Shown here: in pieces, positions 31,634 to 48,995 of the stretch | Layout: every line of letters begins with the position of its first letter | How positions within the stretch are numbered: position 1 is the first letter of the stretch | DNA from: an uncultured virus (IMG/VR IMGVR_UViG_3300025840_000014) | Lineage: Duplodnaviria; Heunggongvirae; Uroviricota; Caudoviricetes | Virus record (IMG/VR): IMGVR_UViG_3300025840_000014 | DNA: 57,482 nucleotides | Reading direction: 5' to 3' (one strand) | Program-made: the position numbers and the translations under genes | Notes under the pieces: generated by a model | Database searches by the model: none | Told to the model about the DNA's origin: nothing | What the model saw: only the letters and a program-made list of their open reading frames with translations

Positions 31634-32263
31634 ATGATTAACAGGATAGGCGATCTTCCAAAAGGCGATTTCACGTTCACTGATAACAGCAGCGCCTCTG
31701 CTCAGCGAGATGCGGTTGCTGCCCTCGGTTTTACAAACGTTTCTTGGACAGCCAATACAGCGAATACGACGAACGCTGGCCTCGTTGGGTCCGCGCATCA
31801 GGTTGTTGTCGACGGTACCGCATATACTGCAACTACATCGTTCACTGGTCTCCATTATGCGACTTCGATCGAGTTCCGTGCTTTCGGCCCGTTTTTCCCG
31901 CCGCACTTCCCGCCCCACTTCCCGCCCCACTTCCCACCGTTTTTCCCGCCATTTTTCCCACCTCACTTCCCGCCGTTCTTCCCTCCGTTCTTCCCGCCTC
32001 ACTTCCCTCCGTTCTTCCCGCCGTTCTTCCCACCGCACTTCCCGCCGTTCTTCCCACCGTTCTTCCCACCTCACTTCCCTCCCTTCTTCCCACCGTGGTT
32101 CCCACCGCACTTCCCGCCGCACTTCCCACCACATTTCCCGCCGCACTTCCCACCATTCTTCCCGCCGCATTTCCCACCACACTTCCCGCCGCACTTCCCA
32201 CCATTCTTCCCACCGCACTTCCCGCCGCACTTCCCGCCGTTCTTCCCTCCCCGATTCAAGTAG
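31634..32263 (+). CDS. Repeat protein: 86-aa N-terminal domain + 30 x (H/F/W)FPP; candidate substrate/precursor
   Basis: Starts 6 nt after the fibre stop. Pro codons vary synonymously while the peptide period stays perfect. Confidence 0.85.
   Translation: MINRIGDLPKGDFTFTDNSSASAQRDAVAALGFTNVSWTANTANTTNAGLVGSAHQVVVDGTAYTATTSFTGLHYATSIEFRAFGPFFPPHFPPHFPPHFPPFFPPFFPPHFPPFFPPFFPPHFPPFFPPFFPPHFPPFFPPFFPPHFPPFFPPWFPPHFPPHFPPHFPPHFPPFFPPHFPPHFPPHFPPFFPPHFPPHFPPFFPPRFK
31892..32251 (+). repeat. Coding 12-bp-period tandem repeat (16 HFPP, 13 FFPP, 1 WFPP)
   Basis: Direct count from the translation; unit (CAC/CAT/TTC/TTT/TGG)-TTC-CCN-CCN. Confidence 0.95.
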
Positions 32264-32275
32264 GGGAGGGAGACG

Positions 32276-32551
32276 GTGCCCCCATTGGTAAAAAAGTATT
32301 GGGGGCCGGTCGAGATTGATAAAGGCAGTCGAAGAACTGGCGCGATCGGTTGGGCTTTGCTAGTCATATACATAGTGTGTTATGACGTATACGCGATTAG
32401 AACCAAGCACGTCGAAACGTTGACTCGTGCCTACTGGCGTGGGTCTGCCAGCCGACGCGGCTCTCTTCTCGTTCATCTGCTTTGGGGTATCGCCACCTTC
32501 CATCTTGTTGCTGAGCATCGAGTAAGAAAAGCGATTTACAAGCGACTCTAA
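32276..32551 (+). CDS. Small membrane protein (2 predicted TM segments)
   Basis: GGAGG RBS, GTG start; hydrophobic GWALLVIYIVCY and LLVHLLWGIATFHLV. Confidence 0.6.
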   Translation: MPPLVKKYWGPVEIDKGSRRTGAIGWALLVIYIVCYDVYAIRTKHVETLTRAYWRGSASRRGSLLVHLLWGIATFHLVAEHRVRKAIYKRL

Positions 32552-32573
32552 GATGTGCTAAAGTCGCATCACT

Positions 32574-33203
32574 ATGGAGGAGCCCGAGAAATCTCTTATC
32601 GAGCCGGGCCATTTCGGAACAGGCGTAGAAAACATCGTCATCATTGAAGACTTTGTCGAGCCCGACGATCTGGCGAAAATTCAAGCCTTCTTCCCGACTA
32701 TCAACGAATGGGAAAACCCGAAGGCTGATGAGTACAACGAAGACGGCACTTGCATTTATGACGCCTCGTATTGGTGGGATCGCATGTGCAGCGGTGAAAT
32801 TTTGAAACGAATTGGTCCAGAGATATATGATCTTGTGGATAAATACGTTTACAAAATGCAAGACGTTCTTGAACAAAAGTTCAACGTCCAGTTGTATTCA
32901 CGCTCGCCAGTTCTTATTCGATGGTTGCCGGGGAACGAGCAGCAACCACACGCAGACAAGCAACTCAACGATGGTACGCCAAACCCGTTCCCGACATACG
33001 ACATCAATTCGATCATTTACTGGAATGACGAATTCGAAGGCGGCCAGTTTTATTATCCGGAATTTGATATCGAACTTGATATCAAACCGGGCCTTGCGGT
33101 TGCTCACCCGGGCGACGTACACTACCTGCACGGCGTAAAGCAGATCATTTCTGGTGAGCGCTGGACAACACCATCCTTTTACACAATTACCGACCTGAAC
33201 TGA
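32574..33203 (+). CDS. 2OG-Fe(II) oxygenase, prolyl-4-hydroxylase-like
   Basis: HAD...YWNDEFEGG...HGV...RWT: intact HxD...H triad and 2OG-binding R-x-T. Confidence 0.9.
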   Translation: MEEPEKSLIEPGHFGTGVENIVIIEDFVEPDDLAKIQAFFPTINEWENPKADEYNEDGTCIYDASYWWDRMCSGEILKRIGPEIYDLVDKYVYKMQDVLEQKFNVQLYSRSPVLIRWLPGNEQQPHADKQLNDGTPNPFPTYDINSIIYWNDEFEGGQFYYPEFDIELDIKPGLAVAHPGDVHYLHGVKQIISGERWTTPSFYTITDLN

Positions 33204-33209
33204 GGAACA

Positions 33210-33917
33210 ATGCGAGTTGCTGGAACTCTCGGCACATCAACTGACGGAATCATCCTGTACAAGGACGTGTGGCCCAAGGACTCTGATTTTGTCGGACGCC
33301 TCGAACGAGGCCTTGAAGGAAGCGCCACCGACTACTTCACATGGAAGCAGGCAATGGTCGGTGACAACGAGATCATGAAGGATTACCGTGACTGCTTCGA
33401 TTTCAAGTTGCGGCAGGGCGACATGCCAGTTCCCGACGAGTTCTCAGATCTCGGCAAGGTTTACGAAGAGGTGATTGCCGGTGTACGTGCGTGCGTAAAG
33501 CACTATTCGTCGCTTTTCAATCTTTCGCTCGACTACGAGGAAGCAACCAACTTCGTAAAATATGGTCCGGGCCAACACTTCTCGGTCCACCCCGACTCTG
33601 GATTCTCCTACTCGTGTGCGGTGTCCGCCATCGGCTACATCAACGACGATTACGAAGGCGGCGAATACATGATGCCGTACAAAAATCTCAAGTTCAAGCC
33701 AGAATTCGGTGACGTCATCGTTCATCCGAGTGACTTCATCTACGCTCACGCGTCACTCCCTGTTTCGTCCGGAACTAAATACTCCGCTGTGACGATGTAC
33801 GACTACAACGATCGCAACCACCAAGAGCACGGCGGCTCGGGAGGTTACGCATCAGCGGGAATGCCCGGACTCGGGCTACCTGATGCGAACTCGCAAGTCA
33901 CCATGCTTGGCGCGTGA
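33210..33917 (+). CDS. 2OG-Fe(II) oxygenase, prolyl-4-hydroxylase-like
   Basis: KYGPGQHFSVHPD...YINDDYEGG...HASLPV..GTKYS. Confidence 0.9.
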   Translation: MRVAGTLGTSTDGIILYKDVWPKDSDFVGRLERGLEGSATDYFTWKQAMVGDNEIMKDYRDCFDFKLRQGDMPVPDEFSDLGKVYEEVIAGVRACVKHYSSLFNLSLDYEEATNFVKYGPGQHFSVHPDSGFSYSCAVSAIGYINDDYEGGEYMMPYKNLKFKPEFGDVIVHPSDFIYAHASLPVSSGTKYSAVTMYDYNDRNHQEHGGSGGYASAGMPGLGLPDANSQVTMLGA

Positions 33918-33918
33918 T

Positions 33919-34647
33919 ATGGAAGTTACGCTCACCCGAAGCCATCAGAATCCTCCAGAAATTCGACAGGCGTCCGTGCGTCGAGACTGGATGGATGAAA
34001 CATACAAGAAGCACGCGTACAAGTGCCTTCCGTTGACTGAGGCCAACGTCAATGGCTGGGAAGTTCTTCTGCAGCACGACGTTGTCGTCCAGTATGACGG
34101 GGGCCCAACTGTTCCGCGAATTCTGGAAGGCCATACCAAGACGTTCGAGATTGACGGGCACTCATACGAACGCGACATCGTCATGCCGAGCATCGTCGGC
34201 ATTATGTCGTTTTGTGTCGGCTGGAAGTTCGCGACACCTCCGGGAGTCGCAACATGGATTACCGGATCCCCCAACTATTTCGTTGATGGTGCCGTACCCC
34301 TGACTGGACATATTCCTTCGGATTGGTGGCCTGATGAGTTCAACATGAACTGGAAGATCACCAAAATCGGCGAGCCTGTAGTGTTCCCAGCGGGAATGCC
34401 TTTCATGTTTTTCCAGTTCTATGACACAAGTCTCATGCCTAGTGTCGAGTTCAATGTGAACAACATGTGGGATGATGACCAAAAGGAATTAAACGACGCC
34501 CGTATGAGATACAGCGTCGCTAAAAGAGAAAAATTGGTCAACGAACCATGGACATGGATGGGTGGGATCCGTACCGGTTTGGACGAAGAAGGAAACCGTA
34601 TCGGTCCTGAATTTTCAGGACACCCAAAACTAAAGGAGCCATCATGA
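33919..34647 (+). CDS. DUF6065-like protein
   Basis: RRDWMD...HAYKCLPL..AN..GW, F.TPPG...GSPN...PLTG...DWWP..F.MNWK motifs recalled for this family. ATG 33919. Confidence 0.65.
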   Translation: MEVTLTRSHQNPPEIRQASVRRDWMDETYKKHAYKCLPLTEANVNGWEVLLQHDVVVQYDGGPTVPRILEGHTKTFEIDGHSYERDIVMPSIVGIMSFCVGWKFATPPGVATWITGSPNYFVDGAVPLTGHIPSDWWPDEFNMNWKITKIGEPVVFPAGMPFMFFQFYDTSLMPSVEFNVNNMWDDDQKELNDARMRYSVAKREKLVNEPWTWMGGIRTGLDEEGNRIGPEFSGHPKLKEPS

Positions 34648-36218
34648 AAGGCGTCGGCGGGATCGCAGTCGGTCTTCGACTAGGAAACCTCGGATTCAAA
34701 ATCAAGGGCGTAACCGCTCAACAGGTGCTCGCTGAACCCGAGTACTTCAAGGAAATCTTGAAGAAGAACAAGATGATTGGTTTCATCGGGATGCACCCGA
34801 CCAACGAGGAACATGCCGCGCTGGTTCACGCCCTTTACGACGGCGAGTACAAACCTGACGAGCATGACCATGGCTACTACCAGCGTGGCCTTCTCAAAGA
34901 TCAGTGGCACGAAACAATCAAAGACGTTGAAAACAAAGAAGACCCAGAGTGGTTTCTTCGTTGCAACTGGCATGTCGACAACCCGTTTTTCGACGAACCA
35001 CCTAGCCTCATTTCTATCCACATGACGACTTACAATGTGGAACAAGGTTACGGCAATACTTTCTGGGTCAGCCTGCGGAATCTTTTCGACGAGTGCCCTG
35101 CCGAATTGCGGGAGCATTTGAAAACGGCCCGATTCCGTGGTGAGACTGGCAGCGAAGAGCACGATGTCAAATCTCATCCTGCTCTCCGCACGCACCCGGA
35201 TACTGGCGAAACAATGCTGTATTGGACCGGGCCGGGGACCATTCTCGAAGGCGAAGAAACGCCTTGGTTCCAAGACCTTCGTAAATATGTAGAGGACTAC
35301 TGCGCCGAGCCACGGAACCGCTACCAGTGGGATTGGGAAGTTGGCGATGTTGTCATTTGGGATAACCGCGCCGTGATGCATGGTTTCTATCCCGGCTGGG
35401 AACGCAAAGACCGCATCTTCCAGCGAGTCGAAGCGGGTACCGACCAGCCGTTCTATGACCCCGAATATCGTGCTGAAATCAACGAAAACTTCGGTGATGT
35501 TCTTGCCGATGAGGATCATCAACGAGACACCAGCATGGGGCCGAACCCGGACCACATCCCTCTCGTTTTCACCAAAGGTTTTTACGCTCTTGAGGGTCTA
35601 GAGGAGTACTACCAAAAGGTGGTTATGTTCACCATCGAAGACGAAGATGGGAACGCTCGCTCGCTATTGCAGGAACTTGAAAATCAAGTAGACGACGACG
35701 AGTTCTTTATCTACCGGGTTCCGCACGATGAGAACAACAGGATTTTCGCAAACCTGAAGCGTTATCGGGATCACATCATGCCCGATTACCCGATGGCTGG
35801 CTGCTCCTTTGTCTGCAACAGGAATGGTGACTTTCACCTGTTCCTCGAACCGGACAGGAATCTGCTGGAAAACGACAACCCTGATCCACTTAGGTGCATC
35901 CCGAACCAGATCCGTGGTTTCCTTGAGTGGCACCCAGATATGCGACACGCGGGCCATGCTTGGCACTACCCGGATTGGTTCCCGCATCAGCCTCTGCAGT
36001 ACAGGCCGTGGAGTTACCACAACTGCTCGTTTATGCAGTATTACAAGTCGGACGGCAATCATCCTCCGGAAGACTTCGTGGTTCAATTCGCGATCGACTC
36101 GCTGTACGGCTGCTTCAACGGGCTGAAAGACAACGAGGATCGTCTTCGTGTAATCTCTCGGGTACACGATTACATCGGATACATGCTCGAACTTAATGAG
36201 CACGAAAACGACAGGTAG
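34644..36218 (+). CDS. TauD/TfdA-family dioxygenase fused to an unknown C-terminal domain
   Basis: WHVD, G.GNT.W, HPALRTHPDTGE, W..GDVVIWDNRAVMH...R; about 250 extra C-terminal residues. Confidence 0.85.
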   Translation: MKGVGGIAVGLRLGNLGFKIKGVTAQQVLAEPEYFKEILKKNKMIGFIGMHPTNEEHAALVHALYDGEYKPDEHDHGYYQRGLLKDQWHETIKDVENKEDPEWFLRCNWHVDNPFFDEPPSLISIHMTTYNVEQGYGNTFWVSLRNLFDECPAELREHLKTARFRGETGSEEHDVKSHPALRTHPDTGETMLYWTGPGTILEGEETPWFQDLRKYVEDYCAEPRNRYQWDWEVGDVVIWDNRAVMHGFYPGWERKDRIFQRVEAGTDQPFYDPEYRAEINENFGDVLADEDHQRDTSMGPNPDHIPLVFTKGFYALEGLEEYYQKVVMFTIEDEDGNARSLLQELENQVDDDEFFIYRVPHDENNRIFANLKRYRDHIMPDYPMAGCSFVCNRNGDFHLFLEPDRNLLENDNPDPLRCIPNQIRGFLEWHPDMRHAGHAWHYPDWFPHQPLQYRPWSYHNCSFMQYYKSDGNHPPEDFVVQFAIDSLYGCFNGLKDNEDRLRVISRVHDYIGYMLELNEHENDR

Positions 36219-36226: not shown

Positions 36227-37075
36227 ATGTCGGTCGACGAGACCCAAACCGAAGCACCGCCAAAAGGGGTTCACCTAGGCGGCGGCATCGTTATGTACGA
36301 AAACGCTTTCGATCTCGACTGGGATTGGATGCGAGAATTTTGCCAAAACACTCTGCGTGAGGAACGTGAGACTTCGTACACTCCGGGGGTCGACCCGATT
36401 ACAGGACAAGAGGGCTACATCAACCGGAGCAAGTTTTTCTTCGAAAAAGACACTTTGGATGAGATGCCTTGGCGGGGAAGTTTGGTCCACCAAAACCCTG
36501 ACCCCAAAGTGATCGAAACTCTCGATTACATCGAGTCGCGCCGAGATCTGTGTCTCCTTGATTACCTCAATCAGTTCCCCATGGCAGGGAAAACCATTTG
36601 GTGGAAGATTCGTGGACACATTGTCGCTTACCCTAAAGGCGCGTTTCTGGGCACGCACTCGGATGTGAGTACCGATTACGAGTACGGCAAGCCTCATCCT
36701 CGCGATCAGTTGGCCACACGCTCATCCGTGAGCGTTGTTGCTTACATCAACGACTGGGTCGAAACAGAGGACGAACTTGACGGAACAAACTTCACGGGTG
36801 GCGAACACAGTTTTGCCTACTACGACATCAGCATCAAACCCAAGCGTGGGAATATGATCTTCTTTCCAGCCAACTACCTTGCTGCTCACGAAGTAAAGCC
36901 GGTTACTGGGGGATGGAGGTACTCCTACTTGGGTTGGTACTGTCAGGGTTCGCCAAATGGCCAGTATTTGGAAGCAGTTGCCGACCCCGTGACTGAACCA
37001 GAAACAGCAAAAATTGCCTCGAACGTCTACATGACGGAGGGGTACTCGATTCTTCCCCCGATTGGATTCAACTGA
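36227..37075 (+). CDS. 2OG-Fe(II) oxygenase
   Basis: LGTHSD...FTGGE...FFPANYLAAHEVKPVTGGWRYS. Confidence 0.88.
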   Translation: MSVDETQTEAPPKGVHLGGGIVMYENAFDLDWDWMREFCQNTLREERETSYTPGVDPITGQEGYINRSKFFFEKDTLDEMPWRGSLVHQNPDPKVIETLDYIESRRDLCLLDYLNQFPMAGKTIWWKIRGHIVAYPKGAFLGTHSDVSTDYEYGKPHPRDQLATRSSVSVVAYINDWVETEDELDGTNFTGGEHSFAYYDISIKPKRGNMIFFPANYLAAHEVKPVTGGWRYSYLGWYCQGSPNGQYLEAVADPVTEPETAKIASNVYMTEGYSILPPIGFN

Positions 37076-37076
37076 A

Positions 37077-37667
37077 ATGATTGAAGCAAAAACCACTATT
37101 GGCATCTGTTCTGTTGGTCGCATGGGCGCAACGCTCGCCTACAGTTTGAAAGATCAAGGCCACCGCCTTGTCACCTTCGCCGCTGACCGCTCTGATGAAA
37201 CCAAGGCTCGCGCCGAAGAGCATGGTGTAGAACAACTCGATTCAATGGCCGAAGTTATGGAAACGTCCGACTACATCTTCGTGATCACCAACGGTGACGG
37301 TGCTGAAAACATTTGCAAAGAATTGACAAATGGGAAGTACCAAGGCTGCGTAATTGAATCGAACGGCCTATGGGGTTTGGAATCAGAGGAAGAATTCCGT
37401 GGTCGTTACATCGATGCTGGCGTTTCCTATGTGGATGCTTCGCTCTACGGGTGGCCCCACCCCGGACGTGATGGGTACACGAACGAACACACCATCTACC
37501 TTTCGGGCGAAAGGGCCAAGGAAGTCGCCGAACTGTTTGGCGACAGCGGCTACTGGAATATTGAAATCACCGATGAAGGCGATGAACCTGAGCACGCCAA
37601 GGCGTTCCGTCGATACCGCAACGATCGCGAGCGCGCAGAGAACGAGGCCCGAGGTCACCCTGTATGA
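37077..37667 (+). CDS. NAD(P)-binding dehydrogenase (6PGD / 3-hydroxyisobutyrate DH-like N-terminal domain)
   Basis: IGICSVGRMG..LA..L...GH, YVDASLYG.P, IYLSG. Confidence 0.65.
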   Translation: MIEAKTTIGICSVGRMGATLAYSLKDQGHRLVTFAADRSDETKARAEEHGVEQLDSMAEVMETSDYIFVITNGDGAENICKELTNGKYQGCVIESNGLWGLESEEEFRGRYIDAGVSYVDASLYGWPHPGRDGYTNEHTIYLSGERAKEVAELFGDSGYWNIEITDEGDEPEHAKAFRRYRNDRERAENEARGHPV

Positions 37668-38323
37668 AATCGATCCTTCATGGCTACGGGGTCATGGAGT
37701 TCCAAGATGTCGTCGAGATCGACCCAGATTTTTTTGATGGCTGGCTGGAACGCCGTAAGGCTAATGAGCCGAGCGACTATATTCTGCAGGATGACGGTAC
37801 CTACCTCAACCGAGGCGGTTACCGCTTTACCGCAGAACAGGTAAACGAATCTCCAAGCCGCATCTTGCGTCTTGAAGAAAACGCCTCACAGGAAGATATT
37901 GATTTTTATCAGTCCGTGTACAACGGAATGGGCGAATGCATCAAGGTTTACTGCCAGCACTTTCCAGAGGTTGAGCCATGCATCTGGTGGAGGGCTCATC
38001 CGCATGTCGCTACCTATGCCGTAACCGGAAACATGGGTTTCCATCATGACAACCTCATCGGTGACGGTAAAGAAAGCAATAACGCCATTTTTACTGTGCT
38101 GACAGGATCTTTGATTTTGAAAGATCGCTGCGAAGGCGGGAACCTACTGTTCAAGTATGCCGGACTAGATATTGCCCCCAAAGCGGGAAGTGCCTTTATC
38201 TACTCGGCAGGATATTTGGGCACCCATGCCGTAGAGCCTGTCACATCAGGCGAGCGTGTCTCGTACCTTGAATTCTTCGGGCACGGCCCGCAAGAAGGTT
38301 CAACAGAATTTGCTTGGCGTTAA
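37664..38323 (+). CDS. 2OG-Fe(II) oxygenase
   Basis: MGFHHDN...EGGNL.F...THAVEPVTSGERVS. Confidence 0.88.
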   Translation: MKSILHGYGVMEFQDVVEIDPDFFDGWLERRKANEPSDYILQDDGTYLNRGGYRFTAEQVNESPSRILRLEENASQEDIDFYQSVYNGMGECIKVYCQHFPEVEPCIWWRAHPHVATYAVTGNMGFHHDNLIGDGKESNNAIFTVLTGSLILKDRCEGGNLLFKYAGLDIAPKAGSAFIYSAGYLGTHAVEPVTSGERVSYLEFFGHGPQEGSTEFAWR

Positions 38324-39336
38324 CGCCTAACAGGGATCGGCCAAGTCTCTCCGTACTCAAGTTTCTCGCCAGTCGGAGGACCCTCAGTTGAGCGCTCCTG
38401 ATTGTGGACAGTTGCGGCGTCAAGTCCGACAGCCCGACTGTTCTCGCTTGAGAAATGTGAATATTCGGACTGCATGAACCGCGCGGTGTCCTGATACAAG
38501 AACGGCATCCACACTGGACACAGCCAGTCGACGCTCTCGTTCGGCTCTTTCACTTCGTACTTGTGAAGACCACCGTGGCCGTACTGAGCCAAATAGGTGT
38601 AACGCTCGCCGGAAGTAACTGGGGCAACCCCATGGGTTCCCATGTAGTTCGCCGGGAAGAAAATCATGTCGCCACGCTTCGGCTTGACACTAATGTCGAG
38701 ATACGGGAAGTGCATCTCTCCGCCCTCGTACTCCTCGTTGAGATACACCAAACAGTTGGTCACCTGATACATCGCAATCTCGCGGCCAGACAGGTGGCGC
38801 TGCCCATCGATGATCAGCGAGTTGGTGTCGTTGTCGTTGTGAATCCCAAGTGATGCTCCGGGCAGGTACTTGAGGCAATGGCCTCGGGCTCTCCACCACA
38901 ACTGGTTCACGACGAGCGGGTACAGGTCGACGTATCGACAGAGCGCGAAGTACATCGTCTCTTCGAAATTTTCGAAAATCTCTCGAATGTTCTCTGGCGT
39001 TGTGGGATTGACCGGCTCTGGCATTCCCATTCCGCCGACCCGCATCGGGAGGGCTAGGAGGTCGTCCATTGAGACGATTTTCCCGTCGAAGGTTTCGCCA
39101 TGGAGCATGTTGCCTTCGTCATCTTTGATGATTTCCAGACCGCATGAAGGAACGTACGACATCATGTCGATGTAGGGCAGCAAAACGTCCGAGTCGAAAT
39201 CAACTGCTCCGTGGAAATGCACGACACCACCGGGGTGATTCGTGTATTCGAGATCGGCGATCAGTTTGAAATCGCTGTCAGTCAACTTGTGGTAGGCGTG
39301 CTTGATGTTGTCTTCGGGTCCGTATAGCCGAGCCAT
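38320..39336 (-). CDS. 2OG-Fe(II) oxygenase (paralogue of 36227 and 37664 genes)
   Basis: LGIHND...YLNEEYEGGE...FFPANYMGTHGVAPVTSGERYT. Confidence 0.9.
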   Translation of the reverse strand: MARLYGPEDNIKHAYHKLTDSDFKLIADLEYTNHPGGVVHFHGAVDFDSDVLLPYIDMMSYVPSCGLEIIKDDEGNMLHGETFDGKIVSMDDLLALPMRVGGMGMPEPVNPTTPENIREIFENFEETMYFALCRYVDLYPLVVNQLWWRARGHCLKYLPGASLGIHNDNDTNSLIIDGQRHLSGREIAMYQVTNCLVYLNEEYEGGEMHFPYLDISVKPKRGDMIFFPANYMGTHGVAPVTSGERYTYLAQYGHGGLHKYEVKEPNESVDWLCPVWMPFLYQDTARFMQSEYSHFSSENSRAVGLDAATVHNQERSTEGPPTGEKLEYGETWPIPVRR

Positions 39337-40888: not shown

Positions 40889-40906
40889 GTTGGGTCTCCA
40901 CTTCTA

Positions 40907-41337: not shown

Positions 41338-41373
41338 GTGTAAACCCCCGTAGGAAACGGTGTGTGCCTTGTA

Positions 41374-41382
41374 AGTATACCA
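41374..41382 (-). promoter_or_regulatory. Extended -10 promoter TGGTATACT driving the minus-strand operon
   Basis: Reverse complement of AGTATACCA in the divergent intergenic gap. Confidence 0.55.
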
Positions 41383-41425
41383 GTCACGTTCATCGGCTAG
41401 AACGAACATCATGTAAGATAATGGC

Positions 41426-42088
41426 ATGACGATGAGCACAGAAACCGTTATTTCACAGGAAATGCTTGACGTTTTGACGAGCATTCATGACCTTGGTCCG
41501 ACTTCCGATGGCGAAAGCGTTTACGACATCGAAGTGCGCGACGTCACCGGCGACAAAAACGCCTTAGCCGACCGAAAAGGCAAGGTGACCATGATTGTCA
41601 ACGTCACTGGCGAATGCGGCAACTCAATGCAGTACCCGATCCTTCAGGTCCTCCAGTACGACTACGCCAATACTGGCTTTTCGATCGTTTGTGTCCCCAC
41701 GAACGATTACTGCGAGTTTGGTTACGGCGAATTCAAAGACTCTCGAAGCAGCGCTGAGGATTGTGAGCGGTTTGCCCACAGTCACTACCGGGTCCGACTG
41801 CCCTTTACCGAACTGGTCACGTCACGCTACAGTCGCGATGATGACGACGACACCTTTGAACCACACCCTCTGTACAAGCGCCTCGGTGCGGGAACTGCCC
41901 CCATCCTCGGCAATTTCGAGAAGTTCATCGTTTCCAAGGACGGCAAGCGTGTTTGTCGATTCACAAATGGCAGCCTTCTCCCGGCCAACTTCGAAATGGG
42001 GAAGGACAACTACTCCCCCGAAGAAGCGCTTGAGCGGATTCGCGCCGCGATCAACATGTTTTTGGCGGAGCCCGACCCCGAAGGCTGA
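41426..42088 (+). CDS. Glutathione peroxidase-family protein (Cys-type, atypical)
   Basis: GKV.MIVNVTGECG...QY, VPTNDYC, HPLYK.L, NFEKFIV.KDG. Confidence 0.85.
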   Translation: MTMSTETVISQEMLDVLTSIHDLGPTSDGESVYDIEVRDVTGDKNALADRKGKVTMIVNVTGECGNSMQYPILQVLQYDYANTGFSIVCVPTNDYCEFGYGEFKDSRSSAEDCERFAHSHYRVRLPFTELVTSRYSRDDDDDTFEPHPLYKRLGAGTAPILGNFEKFIVSKDGKRVCRFTNGSLLPANFEMGKDNYSPEEALERIRAAINMFLAEPDPEG

Positions 42089-42090: not shown

Positions 42091-43050
42091 ATGCATAACT
42101 TCATGGTTGTTGGCGCAACCATCGAAGATGTCGAAAGCAACCCCAGCGAATTCATTGACATCTTCCGCGAGCATGGGCTTATCGGTTTCCGAGATAGCAA
42201 TTGCGTCGATCCAGCAGTAGACCCAATACGACTTCTTGATGCGTTCGCACAAGAACTTTCGTGGACGCCCCACCCGGCTCAACCCGACGGAAGCCTTTCA
42301 GGTAGTTGGGGCTACCTCCAACAGTACGACGACGTTCTGGCGGAACGCGAAGTCGACGTCTCCGAGGACTTGATCCAGTGGCATATCGAAGGAATTTCGA
42401 AGTTGCGCACACAGGCCGCTGCTGCTTGGTTCATGTATAAATTTAGCGCCGCTCCCGGAACGGGATCAACCGGCTTTGTCGACATGTCGAAGTTGCTTGA
42501 CAAAATGCCGGACAACTTCCGCGAAATCGCCGAGCGGGCGGCCACAGTTCATTACCCGCCGTTCCCCTCCACGACAGAAGACATCGAGTCGTTCAGAACT
42601 CAGCGCGACAATCTGCGGAACGTCCTTGCTGTCCCAGCAGGAGACGGGCGTGACGTTTTGGCGTTCCCCCGTCAAGTTGTCGAACATCATCCAGATTTTG
42701 GATTTGATGTCCTGCGTCTCTGTCCCTGCCGTGAATGGTTTGGTTGCCAGCACCACATTTACAGCATCGACGGAGAACGCCCGGAGGCAAACGACCTCGA
42801 TCTTTTTTTTAGGATGCAAGATTGGGTAAACCGTGAAATCGTGTCGGTCAAAGAGAATCAAATTTTCTGGGACTGGGCCGAAGGCGACGTAGTGATTCCT
42901 GATTTGTTCAGGATGGCTCATGGCGTGCGTGGCGGCTTTACACCGGGTCAACGGTATTTCCAAGGATATTGGGCTTTCCCCGTTGGCGTGGCCCAATACG
43001 CTGAGTATTTCGCGGACCCCGACTCTGCTAATGTGAACGCTCATGAGTGA
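42091..43050 (+). CDS. TauD/TfdA-family dioxygenase
   Basis: HGLIGFR, WHIE (HxE), G.TGFVDM, W.EGDVVIPD...AH...R. Confidence 0.8.
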   Translation: MHNFMVVGATIEDVESNPSEFIDIFREHGLIGFRDSNCVDPAVDPIRLLDAFAQELSWTPHPAQPDGSLSGSWGYLQQYDDVLAEREVDVSEDLIQWHIEGISKLRTQAAAAWFMYKFSAAPGTGSTGFVDMSKLLDKMPDNFREIAERAATVHYPPFPSTTEDIESFRTQRDNLRNVLAVPAGDGRDVLAFPRQVVEHHPDFGFDVLRLCPCREWFGCQHHIYSIDGERPEANDLDLFFRMQDWVNREIVSVKENQIFWDWAEGDVVIPDLFRMAHGVRGGFTPGQRYFQGYWAFPVGVAQYAEYFADPDSANVNAHE

Positions 43051-43205: not shown

Positions 43206-43625
43206 ATGGACCGTGTTGTTTATTGCCCTGATGAACAGAGGCTGCCCGAAGCAGAGCATCTGGCCAAAGAGTGGAACGTTTCCGTTCAATTGGGCGATTC
43301 ACCCCGAACTTTAAATCTTGATTTTGATCGAGACAATGTCTGCTTGATTGGCATCCCCATGGAGCAATGGTTCTCTGTCAAACCAAGAAAGCCGGGAAGG
43401 AACAGGAAAATCACCGCTCATTACGTTGACGAGTTCCATCCAACAAAAGATGTGTACCTTGAGTGCGAGCACGAGAATGGCCAGATCTTTACATTTCCGT
43501 ATGAGGTTCTATCCGGGAAACATAAATCAGTTTTTTGTATCCAATTGCAAGTCCCCGGTAAGTACAAACTCAAGGCTTGCGACCAAGACGGGGTAATTGC
43601 CGTAGAGGAAATCGAAGTTATATGA
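43206..43625 (+). CDS. Hypothetical protein (beta-rich C-terminus)
   Basis: Tightly packed in the operon. Confidence 0.6.
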   Translation: MDRVVYCPDEQRLPEAEHLAKEWNVSVQLGDSPRTLNLDFDRDNVCLIGIPMEQWFSVKPRKPGRNRKITAHYVDEFHPTKDVYLECEHENGQIFTFPYEVLSGKHKSVFCIQLQVPGKYKLKACDQDGVIAVEEIEVI

Positions 43626-44215
43626 CAACAGCATCAATTCGAGGAAAACTTGAATCTCTTATCCAAGTTTACGATCTGGATATCGCAGACGACTGCGAGA
43701 GTTTGGTTGAGTCGGTTGAGACTTATCCGTATCTGTCTGACTTTCCGACATCGTGGACGCAGGGTAAAACTGGGTCTTCAACTGTAAGCAATTACAGGAC
43801 TTCACAGTTTCTCCACATGAATCCTATGATTGAAACGCCCGAACTCGACACGCATCCAATGACAGTTCCGTTCAGAAATATGCTGTGGGAGATTGATAAA
43901 AAAATTATCGAGTATCGAGATGAACATGATCTTCACCTGAACAAGGATGAGGTTTGGGGTCTAAATAAATACGGTGTAGGTGGCCAGTATAAAGCGCACT
44001 ATGATCACGGCCCGAACTCCCCCAGATTACTGAGTGCAGTTGCTTTCGTAAATGACGATTTTGAAGGCGGAGAACTTCAGTTCCAGTATTTCAATAAAAG
44101 CATTCATCCTAAAACTGGGCGCCTAGTTCTTTTTCCGTCATCTTTCATTTACCGACATTCGTCTATTCCAGTCGAGGAAGGTGTCAAGTACTCTTTAGTG
44201 ACTTGGTTGATATGA
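43622..44215 (+). CDS. 2OG-Fe(II) oxygenase, prolyl-4-hydroxylase-like
   Basis: KYGVGGQYKAHYD...VNDDFEGGEL.F...FPSSFIYRH...GVKYS. ATG 43622. Confidence 0.9.
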   Translation: MTTASIRGKLESLIQVYDLDIADDCESLVESVETYPYLSDFPTSWTQGKTGSSTVSNYRTSQFLHMNPMIETPELDTHPMTVPFRNMLWEIDKKIIEYRDEHDLHLNKDEVWGLNKYGVGGQYKAHYDHGPNSPRLLSAVAFVNDDFEGGELQFQYFNKSIHPKTGRLVLFPSSFIYRHSSIPVEEGVKYSLVTWLI

Positions 44216-44790
44216 GCACAATCGAAAATATTACAGACTTTGTCACTAAGTACAGCGGGTTCATGAACCCGGATTTACTTCCAGTTGACGAAATCATGAA
44301 GGAGGCCTCCCGCGATTGGGGATTTATCTCTTTCGGTGGTGGCAGCAGCAATCAGGCTGGCTTGGCCAATTCGTCGCGTGCTTCTTTGGATGCTTTGTTT
44401 CAACCAAAGATTTGGGGTCATCTTGAATCCATCAAAGACTGGTATTCAAGCGAGTACGAGAACGCATCTGAAGCAGCACTGAAAGATTACATCGCTGAAT
44501 GGGAGCCTGACTTGCACGAATCAAGTCAAGGTGATTTGATTAAAATTTCGAAAAATCCTTCAGACGGAGGTTGCGAAAGCGCAGCAATCGAGGCGCCTCA
44601 CTCAATTGGCGCGGTTGCTGTTATCACCTGTCTGGGTCATGACGGTGGGTTTGTGAACTTCACAAATTTTGACGATTTACGTATCCCGATTACGCCAACG
44701 GAAATTATTATTGCTCCTGCCGATTTCCCGTTCAGAAAGAAATTCGGAACTTCTGGCGAAACTCTTTACTTGACGCGCTATCTGAAGTAA
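44212..44790 (+). CDS. Degenerate 2OG-Fe(II) oxygenase-like protein
   Basis: C-terminus aligns by eye with the upstream oxygenase (AVA...GG...F..F...P.DFPFR) but lacks the HxD and distal His ligands. Confidence 0.5.
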   Translation: MSTIENITDFVTKYSGFMNPDLLPVDEIMKEASRDWGFISFGGGSSNQAGLANSSRASLDALFQPKIWGHLESIKDWYSSEYENASEAALKDYIAEWEPDLHESSQGDLIKISKNPSDGGCESAAIEAPHSIGAVAVITCLGHDGGFVNFTNFDDLRIPITPTEIIIAPADFPFRKKFGTSGETLYLTRYLK

Positions 44791-44793: not shown

Positions 44794-46254
44794 ATGAAGA
44801 GGATCGCTATCGTTGGTTCGGGCACTGCTGGCCTCATCGCAGCCAACATATTGATCAAGGCTTATCCGACTTATTCCATATCTGTAATTTCTTCTGACAA
44901 GGTTCCAATTATTGGAGTCGGGGAGGGGAGCACAGAGCACTGGACAACGTTTGAGCAGTTTTGCCAAATCAAACGTAGTGCCATGGTCAAAAAAACCGAA
45001 GCGACGTTCAAGTTCGGGATTCGGTTCAAAGATTGGAATGTAGACGGAGATTATTTTCATAGTATTTCCGGAGGCCAGATTCACTCGTCGTCTTTCAACG
45101 CTGGCTACAACTATGTGAATGCGATGGGCAAACGGTTGACACCGTTCTTCGCTCACCCAGCACTAATAATGAATCAGGTGCAGGACTTGGGTGAGAACAC
45201 GCTTAAGCAGAGCAACCAATTTCACTTCGATACGTTCAAGTTGAACACTTTTTTGACAGAACACGCCTCCGACTCGGGTGTTTCATTTATTAAAGGCACG
45301 GTTCTTGATGTCGTACTCCAACCGGAAACAGGAGAGATCGAAGCACTGCAGTTAGAAGACCGAACTCACGCATGTGATTTCGTTATCGATGCAACCGGTT
45401 TCCATAAGAAAATTCTTTCGAAGTTAGGCGATCCGGGGTGGGAATCACATCTCGAATATCTTCCCAACGACTCGGCAATGGTGTTTCAGACTCCAGCAGA
45501 GGACAATCGCGAAATTAAGCCATACACGCTGGCCCAAGCCATGGAATGCGGGTGGATGTGGGAAATCCCAACCCAGAGCAGGCGCGGTAACGGTTACGTG
45601 TTTGCTTCGGATTATGCATCCCATGACCAAATTGTTGAAGAGGCGTCAAGGGTGAGTGGTTTCGACATTGACAATCCGCGTTTTATTTCGTACGATCCGG
45701 GATACGTCAAAACCCCATGGATTAAAAATTGCGTCGCGATTGGCCTTAGTTCTAACTTTATTGAGCCTCTAGAAGCAACATCGATTTCTTCAAGCATTCA
45801 GCAAACGTTTTTGCTCACATCGTATTTGGGCGTCTACGATCAGAATGACGATTGGACGCGTCGAGAATACAACCGCATTTTCGTTAGCATCATGGAGAAC
45901 CTTGCGGCCATGATCTGTCTTCACTATGTCTCCAACAGGGACGACACTCCATTTTGGTCGCACCAGAAAAATCGACCGAAGCCGCAACTCCTAGAAACCT
46001 TGCTCGAAGTGTGCAAGCGTCGAGGTTTCGAACATCACGACATTCCATCGACAAACTTCGAGTTGTTCCAAGCGTTCCATTTTTGGCATGTCGCTCAGGG
46101 GCAAGGGCTGATCGATTCTGAAACGTCTATGTCGCTCATGCGTCAACGCGACTTACTGAACCCGGTTGGGGGTAGTGTTGAGTCGATGTTCAATCAAAAA
46201 ATGTCCGAACCCGTGATTCCTCATCGGGATGCGCTTGAAAGGTGGATGTCCTAG
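44794..46254 (+). CDS. Flavin-dependent tryptophan-halogenase-family protein
   Basis: GSGTAG, IGVGEGS, ATFKFGI (catalytic Lys position), GWMWEIP (WxWxIP), FIEPLEATSI, DTPFW. Confidence 0.9.
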   Translation: MKRIAIVGSGTAGLIAANILIKAYPTYSISVISSDKVPIIGVGEGSTEHWTTFEQFCQIKRSAMVKKTEATFKFGIRFKDWNVDGDYFHSISGGQIHSSSFNAGYNYVNAMGKRLTPFFAHPALIMNQVQDLGENTLKQSNQFHFDTFKLNTFLTEHASDSGVSFIKGTVLDVVLQPETGEIEALQLEDRTHACDFVIDATGFHKKILSKLGDPGWESHLEYLPNDSAMVFQTPAEDNREIKPYTLAQAMECGWMWEIPTQSRRGNGYVFASDYASHDQIVEEASRVSGFDIDNPRFISYDPGYVKTPWIKNCVAIGLSSNFIEPLEATSISSSIQQTFLLTSYLGVYDQNDDWTRREYNRIFVSIMENLAAMICLHYVSNRDDTPFWSHQKNRPKPQLLETLLEVCKRRGFEHHDIPSTNFELFQAFHFWHVAQGQGLIDSETSMSLMRQRDLLNPVGGSVESMFNQKMSEPVIPHRDALERWMS

Positions 46255-46988
46255 TGAAGGACGCAAAATATTGGTTCCCGGCTGGTAAAAACGGCCATAT
46301 CCTTGTTGCTGACAACATGTTCAGGAAATCGCTGTCTAAGCAACTCGTTGAAGAATGCAAATTGTTCTACAAGGAGTTGTTTGACGTCGGGCCAACGATG
46401 GGTGGCTTCATGCCGAACATCAAGAATTCGATGGATTTCAATTATTCGGTCGGCAACTTGGAGGCAGCAGGACTTGCAACTGAGAGGTTTCTTACCGCCG
46501 ATCAGGAAATCGCTGCCGGTCTAGCCAGAGCCATTTGCAAATATCGTGATACTTATCCATCGATATGGCCTTGGCCAAATATTCACGACTCCGGGTTTCG
46601 TCTTCAGCATTACGCTCGCTCGTACGGCTTCTATCGAACGCATTGCGATTCCTTCCCATGGGATCCTCCGGGAGATGTCGGCAACCGAGTCCTCGGAGCC
46701 GTCATTTACCTAAACGATGTTGAAGATGGGGGAGAAACATATTTTCCGCAGCATGAGGTCGGTGTCCCTCCGCGCGCCGGTCGCATTACTCTTTTCCCAA
46801 CAAGTTGGACGCACCCACATACGGGTTTAACACCGCTATCTGATGACAAGTGGATGATTAGCACTTTCATTATGTGCTCAACTGATGCAAAGCCGCCTCC
46901 TGTTTATCGCGAAAATGATCCCACTCCCCTCAAGTCTGACAATGGTACAATTGATGGGGATTTGGAGAACGGGGACGTAAATGAGTGA
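46242..46988 (+). CDS. 2OG-Fe(II) oxygenase
   Basis: FYRTHCD...IYLNDVEDGGETYF...LFPTSWTHPH...KW. Confidence 0.9.
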   Translation: MDVLVKDAKYWFPAGKNGHILVADNMFRKSLSKQLVEECKLFYKELFDVGPTMGGFMPNIKNSMDFNYSVGNLEAAGLATERFLTADQEIAAGLARAICKYRDTYPSIWPWPNIHDSGFRLQHYARSYGFYRTHCDSFPWDPPGDVGNRVLGAVIYLNDVEDGGETYFPQHEVGVPPRAGRITLFPTSWTHPHTGLTPLSDDKWMISTFIMCSTDAKPPPVYRENDPTPLKSDNGTIDGDLENGDVNE

Positions 46989-47136
46989 TTTCCCATCGCC
47001 CCAGTTGTACGACAGCGGGCTTGATCTTTTTGTCGGAACTGATGGCGTGGTCATGGACTGTCCTTTATACGACATAAAGACGTCTATTTTTGATGATGCG
47101 TCACTGCCTGAGGAAGAATTGATACAAGATGCCTAA
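46981..47136 (+). CDS. Small acidic protein, 51 aa (not in ORF track)
   Basis: MSDFPSPQ...IFDDASLPEEELIQDA. Preceded by TGGTACAAT (46943); ATGCCTAA overlap with the next gene. Confidence 0.6.
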   Translation: MSDFPSPQLYDSGLDLFVGTDGVVMDCPLYDIKTSIFDDASLPEEELIQDA

Positions 47137-47416
47137 ATACGATGCTTTTTTGGATCTCAACTACTGTGTTTCTGAGTTGTATCGTCTTATGGCTTACGTC
47201 GGCTGTGAAGAATCGTTTGACGCTAACGACGTAACTCTTGACGAATTGTTGTCATCGAGTGCGACATACTTCGATCTAAACGAACAGCCAATGCAGTCGC
47301 TTTCTTCGGTCGACCAGCGGCAGGCACTACGCAAGAAGTATCGCTGGAACCAAAGTGCCCGGAAGTTTATTTATCAACGTGATCTGGTGAAAGCGTGGAT
47401 GGCGGAAAATGTCTGA
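47129..47416 (+). CDS. Hypothetical protein (paralogue of 40118..40453)
   Basis: MPKYDA..., DANDVTLDE, ends KAWMAENV. Confidence 0.7.
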   Translation: MPKYDAFLDLNYCVSELYRLMAYVGCEESFDANDVTLDELLSSSATYFDLNEQPMQSLSSVDQRQALRKKYRWNQSARKFIYQRDLVKAWMAENV

Positions 47417-48122
47417 GAATTTTGATCAACCAGTGCAAGTAGCAACTTTCGCCAACTCCCTGTCCTCGTCGAAGTGGTCAGATTTTGTCGAGTCCGCAGA
47501 TTTTCTTGCTTTTTGCAGGGCTGCCGCACAGGCCGAGATTGATCTTGGGATGAATCGTAACCGCGAGGCCACTGGCCAAGTGCATGAACTCATGGTCTAC
47601 GAGATGTTTTCCACAGGCTCGTTCAGGTTTTCGACAATGCTGAGTTCTCTTATGACCTCTGCGGAGGCGATTGTTCGTACTTCTTCACCGAAATCTGTTT
47701 TGAGCGTTGGAAACCCCGGGCTCCTGCCGCTACTTGCCACCGAAAATTTTGAATCGCTCGTCGTCAGCAATGACGTGCACTTGGCTCACGCTGAGAAAAC
47801 TTGGACGAGTGCTATCGGTGACTACTCGACTGTCTCGTGGCAAGATATCGATTCTGGAACTCTGCCTTCATCATATGATTGCATTTTGGTAAGTGTTCCA
47901 AGCGTTGCTCACGATATCGATATTCTCAAAACTCTTGCTTCGTTTTTGACCGCGTCGGGGACAATGGTCATGTTGAGCGCTACTGATCACGGTAATCTCT
48001 TTAAGTACCGAGAAAATCACGACTATTACTCACTTTATTTAGATCTAAAGGAAATGTCGGGATTTTCCTTCAGTTTGATTCCATCCGGGCTAGGGATCGG
48101 TGTTCTGACACGCAACTCGTAA
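47409..48122 (+). CDS. Methyltransferase-fold-like protein (paralogue of 39346..40128)
   Basis: SPKSVLSVG, SYDCILV, LASFLTASGTMVM. Confidence 0.55.
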   Translation: MSENFDQPVQVATFANSLSSSKWSDFVESADFLAFCRAAAQAEIDLGMNRNREATGQVHELMVYEMFSTGSFRFSTMLSSLMTSAEAIVRTSSPKSVLSVGNPGLLPLLATENFESLVVSNDVHLAHAEKTWTSAIGDYSTVSWQDIDSGTLPSSYDCILVSVPSVAHDIDILKTLASFLTASGTMVMLSATDHGNLFKYRENHDYYSLYLDLKEMSGFSFSLIPSGLGIGVLTRNS

Positions 48123-48140
48123 AGTAGTAGTGTTCAAGTC

Positions 48141-48995
48141 ATGCGGCGGATCAAACAAGAAGATCTTATTGTAGCGAAGACCATTCACGACGTTGAACCT
48201 CTGCCGGGCCAAATTATTGTTGTCCCCAAGTCGAATCGGATGTACGAAGAGGCGTCAACCCCGGTGGACAACGCATTGGGTTGGCCTGAGTGGTTTCACA
48301 ACCTCGAAGTCGCTGATGGATCCCTCAAAAGATGTCAAGGAACACAAGATTTCCTTTCCCTTGGCATGACATTTAGGCTGCCAGCAGAAGTCCAAATCAG
48401 GAGAAACATCACCGGTCAAGGCTGGGACGCTCGATGGATGACGAACGAGCAAGGATTTTCTCCGGAGAATCCCCAGATGAGCCCAGACAACCTTTTCGAA
48501 ATCCAGTCTTTTTCCTTCCATCAAACCGGCGAAATACCGGCGACCGAGGATCGGAAATTGAAAGAAGCCAACTGGGTAAAAATTGTCAACCCGTGGCAAC
48601 TTAAAACTGCGCCCGGGTGGTCCTGCATGGTGCTTCCGGTTTACTGGGAGGGGCGCAGAAACTGGACGATCATGCCGGGAGTGGTCCACACCGACTTCTA
48701 TCACCACGTCAACTGGGTGTTAAACATCTACGAGGACGAAGATTTCACCATTCCGTATGGTCAGCCCATCGTTCACATCATCCCTTTCCCGCGTTATCCT
48801 CGGACTTCGGTCGGGTATGGGGACGATTCAATTCATCGCCTTATGAGATCTAGGGGTATGGGCACCGCTTACGACCCCTTGGTTCATAGCAGGAAATATC
48901 GCATCGCCCAGCGTAAGGCTGACAAGGAATGCCCATATCTGGCGCATCTGGAACAGCCCAAAAAGCGAAGGTTTTGGCCTTTCAGGAAGTCCTGA
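48141..48995 (+). CDS. DUF6065-like / conserved phage protein
   Basis: PEWF...SLKRC...DFLSLG, KIVNPWQLKTAPGWSC...PGVVHTDFYH..N...G.PIVHIIPF. Confidence 0.6.
   Translation: MRRIKQEDLIVAKTIHDVEPLPGQIIVVPKSNRMYEEASTPVDNALGWPEWFHNLEVADGSLKRCQGTQDFLSLGMTFRLPAEVQIRRNITGQGWDARWMTNEQGFSPENPQMSPDNLFEIQSFSFHQTGEIPATEDRKLKEANWVKIVNPWQLKTAPGWSCMVLPVYWEGRRNWTIMPGVVHTDFYHHVNWVLNIYEDEDFTIPYGQPIVHIIPFPRYPRTSVGYGDDSIHRLMRSRGMGTAYDPLVHSRKYRIAQRKADKECPYLAHLEQPKKRRFWPFRKS

Follow-up and report, generated by a model that had tools for sequence, protein, structure and literature searches.

A stretch of 57,482 nt from an uncultured virus of the Caudoviricetes (IMG/VR record IMGVR_UViG_3300025840_000014; "the window" below means this whole stretch) raises the question of what the large oxygenase sets of some phages act upon. 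The region under study, positions 31634..48995, opens with a gene for a proline-rich repeat protein placed right behind a tail-fibre gene and continues with about 16 kb of enzyme genes, with reading frames that overlap or almost abut. Arrays of 2-oxoglutarate (2OG)-Fe(II) oxygenases have been catalogued in phages since 2010 with no substrate, and the only published proposal that we found, in the part of the source available to us, is secondary metabolism in Synechococcus phage Syn9 (PMC2938197). Our results show that the repeat gene and genes for prolyl 4-hydroxylase (P4H)-type enzymes are linked in both directions across uncultured phages, and sequence comparison inclines us, with some reserve, to the view that what these enzymes hydroxylate is the proline stalk of a virion protein associated with the fibre.

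The open reading frame (ORF) of the repeat protein, 31634-32263 on the plus strand, begins 6 bases past the stop codon of the fibre ORF and is translated into 209 aa, namely 86 N-terminal residues, 30 xFPP units and the final residues RFK. The earlier note on this DNA had described a protein ending in 30 perfect xFPP units right after the tail fibre, and this was borne out: the array is uninterrupted (16 HFPP, 13 FFPP and 1 WFPP, with 60 prolines) and scores 356-447 in Tandem Repeats Finder. In five related genomes a 4-unit pattern had 11-23 matches each on the coding strand and the reversed pattern 0-3, and this coding-strand excess indicates that the repeat is not due to chance. The protein has two parts:

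31634..31891, plus strand: N-terminal PASTA-fold domain, residues 1-86 (AlphaFold2 model and structural matches)
31892..32263, plus strand: 30 xFPP units, C-terminal RFK and stop codon (translation and Tandem Repeats Finder)

The AlphaFold2 model has a pLDDT above 90 across residues 10-85, and the top 15 structural matches of this domain found by VIA are all PASTA domains (PknB, PrkC, StkP and PBP2x), at Z 5.3-7.8 across 57-71 aligned residues, with the next-ranked match at Z 3.9. The modelled N-terminal domain therefore has the PASTA fold, a fold used by PknB and PBP2x outside the cell wall, and the match extends across the whole domain; Pfam searches of the full protein and of this domain alone returned no match, PF03793 (PASTA) included. 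Unlike its cellular counterparts, it is a single domain on a phage protein, with neither a signal peptide (none on inspection of the translation) nor a kinase or PBP module, and its ligand binding is putative. The stalk was modelled without secondary structure, at a pLDDT of about 50. Its four-residue x-F-P-P unit contains no Gly and no Ser, which rules out both a collagen-like repeat (Gly every third residue) and an extensin-like repeat (Ser-Pro(n)). No match to the repeat protein was found by tblastn among GenBank phages, a search in which the low-complexity filter probably masks the repeat.

A degenerate DNA pattern for five xFPP units matched at least 121 IMG/VR stretches, and flanks of up to 10 kb were examined for 80 of them, taking as a P4H homologue any ORF that matches a P4H paralogue of the window in phmmer at E <1e-5. 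Depending on the paralogue, homologues were present in 46-70 of these 80 loci. Among the 71 repeat ORFs with at least 3 kb of downstream sequence, the nearest 3' P4H lay within 1 kb in 41, within 3 kb in 50 and within 10 kb in 58, and for the 22 repeat ORFs whose flanks reach 8 kb or more in both directions, 81 P4H ORFs lay downstream vs 15 upstream. The 13 repeat ORFs lacking a downstream P4H comprise five long FN3 proteins (6-9 units), three spurious ORFs, three loci with the array on the opposite side, and the loci L050 and L068. In the whole contigs of five exceptions, P4H genes were farther off in two (1 and 6 copies), while the other three were fragments, estimated to be 5-31% complete.

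The reverse comparison started from the other core enzyme-island family, DUF6065, and took the best 80 of 187 IMG/VR stretches encoding relatives of the DUF6065 protein of the window, which served as a single-protein query. A same-strand xFPP ORF was found upstream in 61 of these 80 loci, and its recovery followed flank length: 28/28 with at least 9 kb of flank, 45/48 with at least 5 kb and 8/19 with less than 3 kb. Examined for co-occurrence and synteny, as the earlier note had proposed, the repeat gene is linked with P4H and DUF6065 from both sides. A scan seeded with P4H, which returned 11 IMG/VR loci, 2 of them from the window's own phage, is a weak reverse test.

An upstream flank of 3 kb or more was present for 55 repeat ORFs, and in 43 of these a homologue of the fibre gene lies no farther than 500 bp before the repeat gene. 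The first P4H after the repeat gene is of the type encoded at 32574 in 49 of the 66 repeat ORFs that have a P4H within 1 kb downstream. Among 91 unique DUF6065 ORFs of phages, 63 are directly preceded by a P4H of the type encoded at 33210, whose end overlaps the DUF6065 start, and a P4H of any type overlaps that start in 67. Five related genomes of 100-210 kb carry one repeat gene each, with 32 of their 41 PF13640 matches at most 16 kb downstream of it and a single DUF6065 copy at most 5.3 kb downstream in all five. Two of them, complete genomes of ~200 kb, carry the module without a detectable sheath homologue, while the sheaths of the other three are 47-67% identical to that of the window; the module is therefore not confined to one close lineage. 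The linked DUF6065 copies diverge down to 21-29% identity.

This clustering bears on the idea that the oxygenases serve host takeover by hydroxylating host proteins such as ribosomal proteins or translation factors, and sit beside fibre genes by an accident of a hypervariable island. Bacterial prolyl hydroxylases acting on translation factors do exist, and cyanophage genomes have homologous oxygenases dispersed at sites distant from fibre genes, one of them next to uvsX. We nevertheless regard the idea as quite improbable, given that so many of the copies in the five genomes follow the repeat gene and that the oxygenase genes are packed with structural genes.

The widely conserved core consists of P4H and DUF6065 only, and the TauD-family oxygenases, the dehydrogenase, the glutathione peroxidase (GPx)-like protein and the halogenase are lineage-specific extras. 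In the 80 flanked xFPP loci, DUF6065 was found in 52, the GPx-like protein in 30 (often first after the repeat gene), the long TauD in 11, the dehydrogenase in 10, the short TauD in 7 and the halogenase in 1. Within the islands of the five related genomes, the halogenase occurs only in the window's clade (2/5). The proposal that it acts on the Trp of the repeat gained no support from comparison: one relative (G004) has the halogenase and no W in its array, another (G005) has W and no halogenase, and no pattern linked halogenase and array Trp among four phages. The long TauD was downstream of 16/26 His-containing arrays vs 0/46 His-free arrays, and the dehydrogenase of 14/26 vs 4/46, but the positives belong to related islands, so this association is only a hint.

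The genes of the island in the window are the following:

32276..32551, plus strand: DUF7427 small protein, 91 aa (PF24202, 3.5e-08)
32574..33203, plus strand: P4H-type 2OG-Fe(II) oxygenase (phrog_2297; HxD...H in the alignment; paralogue of 33210 and 38320; no Pfam match)
33210..33917, plus strand: P4H-type oxygenase (PF13640, 4.1e-09), 3' end overlapping the DUF6065 start
33883..34647, plus strand: DUF6065 protein (PF19541, 8e-42, 143.8 bits)
34644..36218, plus strand: long TauD-family oxygenase, 524 aa (PF02668, 1.1e-31), resembling the solved TauD and AtsK structures
36227..37075, plus strand: P4H-type oxygenase (PF13640, 7.7e-12), catalytic motif kept
37062..37667, plus strand: NAD(P)-binding dehydrogenase-like protein (NAD_binding_2, 1.5e-07, and other Rossmann families)
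37664..38323, plus strand: P4H-type oxygenase (PF13640, 2.1e-07), catalytic motif kept
38320..39336, minus strand: P4H-type oxygenase, 338 aa (PF13640, 1.2e-10), catalytic motif kept
39346..41484, minus strand: block of a 260-aa protein and five small ORFs (111, 75, 72, 71 and 121 aa), no Pfam or PHROG family
41426..42088, plus strand: glutathione-peroxidase-like (GSHPx) protein (PF00255, 2.6e-12)
42091..43050, plus strand: second, short TauD-family oxygenase (PF02668, 1e-15)
43577..44215, plus strand: P4H-type oxygenase (PF13640, 2e-15)
44203..44790, plus strand: degenerate oxygenase-like protein without HxD (aligns with the paralogues, metal triad lost; no Pfam match)
44794..46254, plus strand: flavin-dependent Trp-halogenase-family enzyme (PF04820, 2.3e-93, 314 bits)
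46242..46988, plus strand: P4H-type oxygenase (PF13640, 2.1e-11), catalytic motif kept
48141..48995, plus strand: second, divergent DUF6065-like protein, Syn9 gp43-like (phrog_7084, 1.5e-25; no Pfam match at E<0.01)

Six of the P4H ORFs score 32.2-57.9 bits against the PF13640 cut-off of 27. The seventh, 32574, aligns with these six and keeps the HxD...H iron triad and the basic 2OG-binding residue found in all seven aligned paralogues, so the window encodes seven intact P4H-type enzymes and, at 44203, one that has lost the triad. This agrees with the count of seven intact and one degenerate oxygenase in the earlier note, and Pfam likewise recovered its two TauD proteins, Trp-halogenase, dehydrogenase and GPx. 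The second of its two DUF6065-like proteins, 48141, was recognized by its PHROG match, an alignment with the DUF6065 family at 17% identity and a match to Syn9 gp43. Two proteins described as methyltransferase-like, 39346 on the minus strand and 47409, had nothing in Pfam beyond Anamorsin_N at E 0.096, so that this label found no support, and of the "several tiny paralogues" only 40670, 40907 and 41119 resemble each other, weakly (E about 3e-4); homologues of 40670 occur in 11 of the 80 xFPP-seeded loci. Outside the window, only L054 and L069, the two closest relatives, have the DUF7427 gene behind the repeat gene. Among the 30 window ORFs covered by the Pfam scan there was no protease, exporter or glycosyltransferase, as had been claimed, nor any leader-recognition element, peptide synthetase or carrier protein.

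The nearest solved structures to 43577 are the P4H of Bacillus anthracis (3itq and 5hv0; 3.8e-07) and the human collagen P4H alpha-2 (7zsc; 0.0024), which share PF13640 and the HxD...H motif, with a match that covers the catalytic core only (residues 122-210). The seven paralogues are therefore P4H-type enzymes by sequence, whose nearest solved relatives hydroxylate peptidyl proline and whose own activity is predicted. The known substrates of the bacterial and human enzymes are X-Pro-Gly collagen-type peptides, in contrast to the Gly-free stalk of the window.

DUF6065, the second component of the core, was identified at 33883 over profile positions 5-188 of 236, far above the PF19541 cut-off of 26.6 bits. 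An AlphaFold2 model built from 52 sequences (pLDDT 95.6) consists of a dUTPase-like beta barrel with a C-terminal helix. VIA aligned it with 12 chains at Z 8.2-10.4 over 104-129 residues, all of them dUTPases except one dUTPase-like herpesvirus tegument protein, and Foldseek gave dUTPase matches with E down to 7.5e-05. As modelled, DUF6065 thus has a dUTPase-like fold. Membership in the dUTPase enzyme family PF00692 was considered and rejected, with no profile match for 33883, a faint one for 48141 (E 0.25) and no dUTPase in a PDB profile search. The invariant residues R21, W23, M24, T27, H31, Y33 and C35 lie in an N-terminal helical segment. No match to 33883 was found by tblastn among GenBank phages.

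A profile search of 1.84 billion representatives returned 1970 DUF6065 clusters at E <=0.001. Of 22 long members scanned, five are fused to 2OG-FeII_Oxy_3 and five to Cupin_8/JmjC, and these natural fusions tie DUF6065 to protein hydroxylases beyond phages; two, P0091 and P0093, have matches to Stf0-type sulfotransferase domains, which DUF6065 is fused to or adjoins, and this recalls the idea of hydroxylation followed by sulfation in the accessible part of PMC2938197. Of 401 genomes sampled from one bacterial phylum, 26 have Pfam DUF6065 (a tally that includes G399, flagged as unpublished, and on which no other result here depends), and when 185,579 species genomes were scanned for a pattern taken from the phage DUF6065, only two contigs of metagenome-assembled genomes came up. 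Of seven bacterial loci, four (L216, L219, L223 and L224) have DUF6065 adjoining a gene for an aminoacyl-tRNA editing domain (PF04073), and LysE or thioredoxin-TPR genes are often close by in these loci. Prediction of a complex between DUF6065 (alignment A2) and the repeat protein (A3) scored 0.00 in two runs which, being without controls, give no answer either way.

The repeat protein belongs to a large, modular family. Across the 80 loci the x residue is F in 644 units, Y in 235, H in 129, W in 12 and another residue in 16, and close relatives of the window protein have 12 to 34 units. Three candidates, L038, L074 and L080, were discarded as spurious low-complexity ORFs. The array is preceded by PASTA or by one or more FN3 domains, with direct Pfam PASTA matches in the relatives L019, L023, L033, L043, L079 and L146. 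Of 136 unique 3'-complete ORFs, 65 end with exactly x-F-K and a stop codon, 6 with a short tail ending in GFK, 16 with another short tail and 49 with a longer one. Among the longer tails are He_PIG Ig-like domains (L031, L035 and L050), short segments rich in Cys and, in L058, a weak, sub-threshold Hint-like match (Intein_splicing 22.8 bits vs a cut-off of 35.8; PT-HINT E 0.0083; Hint_2 E 0.015). L005, L056 and L077 look Hint-like by eye only, and Pfam and PDB sequence searches gave no support for such a domain (Hint_2 at E 0.27 for L077, none for L005 and L056). Five loci (L023, L043, L051, L052 and L075) have two fibre-plus-repeat cassettes, with the enzyme array only after the second.

One relative, L030, carries a Peptidase_S74 intramolecular chaperone (3.7e-11, above the Pfam cut-off) that starts directly after "...AFK", whereas the window protein stops after RFK. 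Peptidase_S74 domains fold trimeric fibres and then cut themselves off. If the domain does so here, the mature L030 protein would have the xFK end that closes most xFPP proteins, and by analogy it points to a trimeric fibre-like assembly that sheds a C-terminal chaperone.

These architectures also bear on the "RiPP-like" label of the earlier note, that is, a pathway for ribosomally synthesized and post-translationally modified peptides in which the repeat would serve as a precursor, to be modified, cleaved and set free as peptides. Clustered modifying enzymes next to a repetitive substrate do resemble such logic, and some relatives have a self-cleaving-type domain after the repeat. However, the N-terminus is a folded PASTA or FN3 domain instead of a leader, self-cleaving domains 3' of the repeat would leave it attached to that folded domain, and Pfam identified no protease, exporter or recognition element, so we consider peptide release very improbable. 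The claim in the same note that a modified structural protein is favoured over a secreted product is in line with the location of the gene after that of the fibre, with the L030 chaperone and with the presence of PASTA or FN3 domains. Of its overall interpretation, the comparison favours the substrate-enzyme link and the structural protein and lends no support to the RiPP pathway, the halogenation of Trp or the methyltransferases.

The cluster type itself is already known. In the available part of their paper, Iyer, Abhiman, de Souza and Aravind (2010) report that ten dioxygenases encoded in tandem in Syn9 are accompanied by two Trp halogenases and by a protein of dUTPase fold that has a conserved Cys, and propose secondary-metabolite synthesis for the cluster (gp41-gp60) (PMC2938197). 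With seven P4H-type and two TauD oxygenases, one halogenase, two DUF6065-like genes and the invariant Cys35, the window is of the Syn9 type as that part defines it. Window ORF 48141 matches Syn9 gp43 (tblastn, 28.8% identity, 4e-5), and the Syn9 cluster lies directly 3' of genes annotated as tail fibre assembly, in a phage whose host is a cyanobacterium, unlike the probable actinobacterial host of the window phage. The Gly-rich "tail fiber assembly" protein gp38 (2344-3144 in L235, the Syn9 locus), encoded just 5' of the halogenase/dioxygenase cluster, ends in ...HFK, the same x-F-K end as most xFPP proteins, which may be a coincidence. For the xFPP family, its PASTA/FN3 architecture and its two-way link with the enzymes, we found no published description in the literature searched, with subscription journals and supplements outside its scope.

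The Syn9 proposal suggests that the island of the window could be a cluster that makes or tailors a small molecule or some derivative of a free amino acid, placed at a permissive site beside fibre genes. The TauD and Trp-halogenase families of the window, which typically comprise small-molecule enzymes, would fit it, as would the lack of a Pro-rich ORF near the Syn9 cluster. Yet by Pfam the island has no exporter, carrier protein or peptide synthetase, its core enzymes come closest to those that hydroxylate peptidyl proline, DUF6065 occurs in fusions with P4H and with JmjC/Cupin_8 domains, and the link to a Pro-rich protein is tight in both directions. We therefore judge this explanation unlikely.

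Virus-encoded hydroxylation of repeats has a parallel in chlorovirus PBCV-1, which encodes a P4H-type enzyme acting on virus-encoded Pro-rich tandem repeats; by description, that system differs from the window in belonging to a giant algal virus and in having a single enzyme, another repeat motif, no DUF6065 partner and no fibre context. Plant extensins and other hydroxyproline-rich glycoproteins likewise have aromatic-containing Pro-rich repeats that P4H turns into stiff polyproline-II rods in a cell-wall setting. In plants, however, the modification belongs to the secretory pathway, with glycosylation and cross-linking by peroxidases as later steps, whereas the island of the window has no glycosyltransferase by Pfam.

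The surroundings of the island place it within the tail-fibre module and at the same time supply other possible substrates:

25721..31627, plus strand: long tail fibre protein, 1968 aa (tail-fibre PHROGs, phrog_454 at 6.9e-38 and others; Pfam Mtd_N at residues 7-45)
50149..51984, plus strand: collagen-like fibre protein (Pfam Collagen, 4.7e-07; three G-X-Y runs of 9-14 triplets)
54556-55539: endolysin with PG_binding_1 (profile match)

Past the island end lie more fibre-like genes, including the collagen-like one, and the endolysin gene, so the enzymes are flanked by fibre genes on both ends. The collagen-like protein is a possible alternative substrate, and more generally the oxygenases might modify other virion proteins, be they collagen-like, Gly-rich fibres or the 1968-aa fibre, with the xFPP protein as a co-travelling fibre accessory. 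Consistent with this, the collagen-like gene directly follows the island, the bacterium whose P4H is the nearest solved one has collagen-like proteins on its surface, distant P4H and DUF6065 loci lie beside collagen-like or Gly-rich fibre genes with no xFPP, and the fibre homologue accompanies the repeat gene in most loci. Nevertheless, collagen-like ORFs are far rarer partners than xFPP (11/80 and 12/80 loci, vs 61/80 for xFPP among the best 80 of 187 DUF6065 loci and 28/28 with long flanks), and the 1968-aa fibre has no G-X-Y run of at least 8 triplets. Modification of these proteins in place of the stalk seems to us rather unlikely.

Several observations weigh against hydroxylation of the stalk as we read it. 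TauD and halogenase families usually act on small molecules. Unlike the window, Syn9 has no xFPP or other Pro-rich ORF nearby, its neighbours being Gly-rich and fibre-like, and in nine of nine distant P4H loci (contigs of 4.6-12.5 kb) P4H and DUF6065 occur without runs of at least four xFPP units; among these nine there was one PFPP-type tract and one collagen-like ORF. For five long FN3 proteins of 6-9 units, the surrounding 10 kb hold no P4H, and two of the three contigs searched carry P4H elsewhere. P4H gene number and repeat unit number are only weakly correlated (rho 0.21, p 0.076, uncorrected for phylogeny), and repeats made of FFPP alone also have arrays of 7-10 paralogues beside them, a large enzyme set for which there is no evident need. 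The cellular DUF6065 genes, in the seven loci examined, lie among housekeeping genes with no P4H next door. Finally, much of the synteny may have been inherited and not independently selected. Since P4H and DUF6065 occur without xFPP, the Syn9 neighbours are Gly-rich and the correlation of length and number is weak, a broader statement, that of a fibre-protein modification module with the xFPP stalk as its commonest partner, is safer than one in which the stalk is the only substrate. The PFPP-type tract belongs to an FN3 protein with a Cys-rich tail (L209, 178-936; APPPFPPPFPPPFPP...), encoded 5' of a distant P4H and DUF6065 set, and it indicates that the stalk motif is wider than xFPP with an aromatic x.

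As to the phage itself, the window has the genes of a contractile-tailed phage (sheath, tube, tape measure and baseplate proteins by PHROG matches), with a sheath only ~38% identical to those of Gordonia, Arthrobacter and Brevibacterium phages, and megablast of 31000-37000 found no DNA-level match among GenBank phages. WhiB, a marker used for actinophages in the part of PMC6802176 that was available, is encoded in all five large related genomes, and psbA in none of the five. The hosts of these relatives are therefore probably Actinobacteria, and by extension from their sequences that of the window phage is probably an actinobacterium too; WhiB was absent from the window's own IMG/VR fragments (0/4), each only 11-13% complete. 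The stretch is contained in 20 public runs labelled freshwater metagenome. Contigs of four freshwater RNA libraries cover 19-28 of 30 bins of 30000-49900, mostly at 99% identity or more, which is compatible with expression and no proof of it, as contigs show neither strand, level nor freedom from DNA carry-over; their low cover over the repeat itself is not interpretable. Summed contig depth, a poor measure, was highest over the minus-strand small ORFs at 40000-41320 (11-18 vs 0-7 elsewhere).

Other features of the window were noted in passing. Positions 25721-25860, at the start of the fibre gene, encode Mtd_N, the N-terminal domain of the major tropism determinant (1.4e-17). ORF 49439-50149 is paralogous to the collagen-like protein (E 1.6e-12), and ORF 52288-54324 (678 aa), with Thr-rich tandem repeats (Tandem Repeats Finder rows 53559-53719) and a sub-threshold PPC domain match, is probably a further fibre or adhesin protein. 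Upstream of the virion genes, 761-4492 holds two ParB-like genes, one thymidylate-synthase-like gene and one PAPS-reductase-like gene (phrog_2302, 9.5e-76), and this group may be a DNA-modification or partition module. A scan of 25000-44900 for promoters and terminators found fewer sites than in shuffled sequence.

The region is best explained as the end of the tail module that serves host recognition in a freshwater phage not yet cultured. The product of 31634-32263 would be a fibre-associated protein in which a PASTA-fold domain is followed by a stalk of 30 (H/F/W)-Phe-Pro-Pro units and a conserved x-Phe-Lys C-terminus, on a family plan in which PASTA or FN3 precedes (aromatic-F-P-P)n and the stalk ends at xFK or carries a Cys-rich knob, an Ig-like or Hint-like domain or a self-cleaving fibre chaperone. 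The P4H-type enzymes, together with DUF6065, would hydroxylate the stalk prolines and perhaps neighbouring side chains. Because the repeat protein has no signal peptide, we infer that this would happen in the cytoplasm of the infected cell, before virion assembly. By the logic of collagen and extensin, hydroxylation would turn a greasy tract of Pro and aromatic residues into a stiffer, more polar rod of the polyproline-II type, which would present the wall-binding domain. The many P4H paralogues could serve different ring positions or neighbouring side chains, and the TauD, dehydrogenase, GPx-like and halogenase proteins would be additions of particular lineages to the core.

The xFPP protein offers a concrete candidate substrate that is cheap to test: a small, soluble-looking protein of 209 aa with 60 prolines in a regular array, adjoining its presumptive enzymes in many uncultured phages. 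If its stalk is hydroxylated, this would be, to our knowledge, the first enzyme system that hydroxylates a protein of the phage particle, DUF6065 would gain a role, and the result would bear on host recognition by phages of the abundant freshwater Actinobacteria. More tentatively, and with clearly less confidence, we suggest that freshwater actinophages may possess a dedicated multi-enzyme pathway in which a P4H battery guided by a DUF6065 adaptor repeatedly hydroxylates the stalk, which in some lineages would be further oxidised or halogenated, giving a rod rich in hydroxyproline, perhaps adhesive or open to cross-linking, which would bring a peptidoglycan-binding domain to the wall of the host. 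If true, this would be a particle chemistry new for phages, and DUF6065 would be a general partner domain of bacterial protein hydroxylases.

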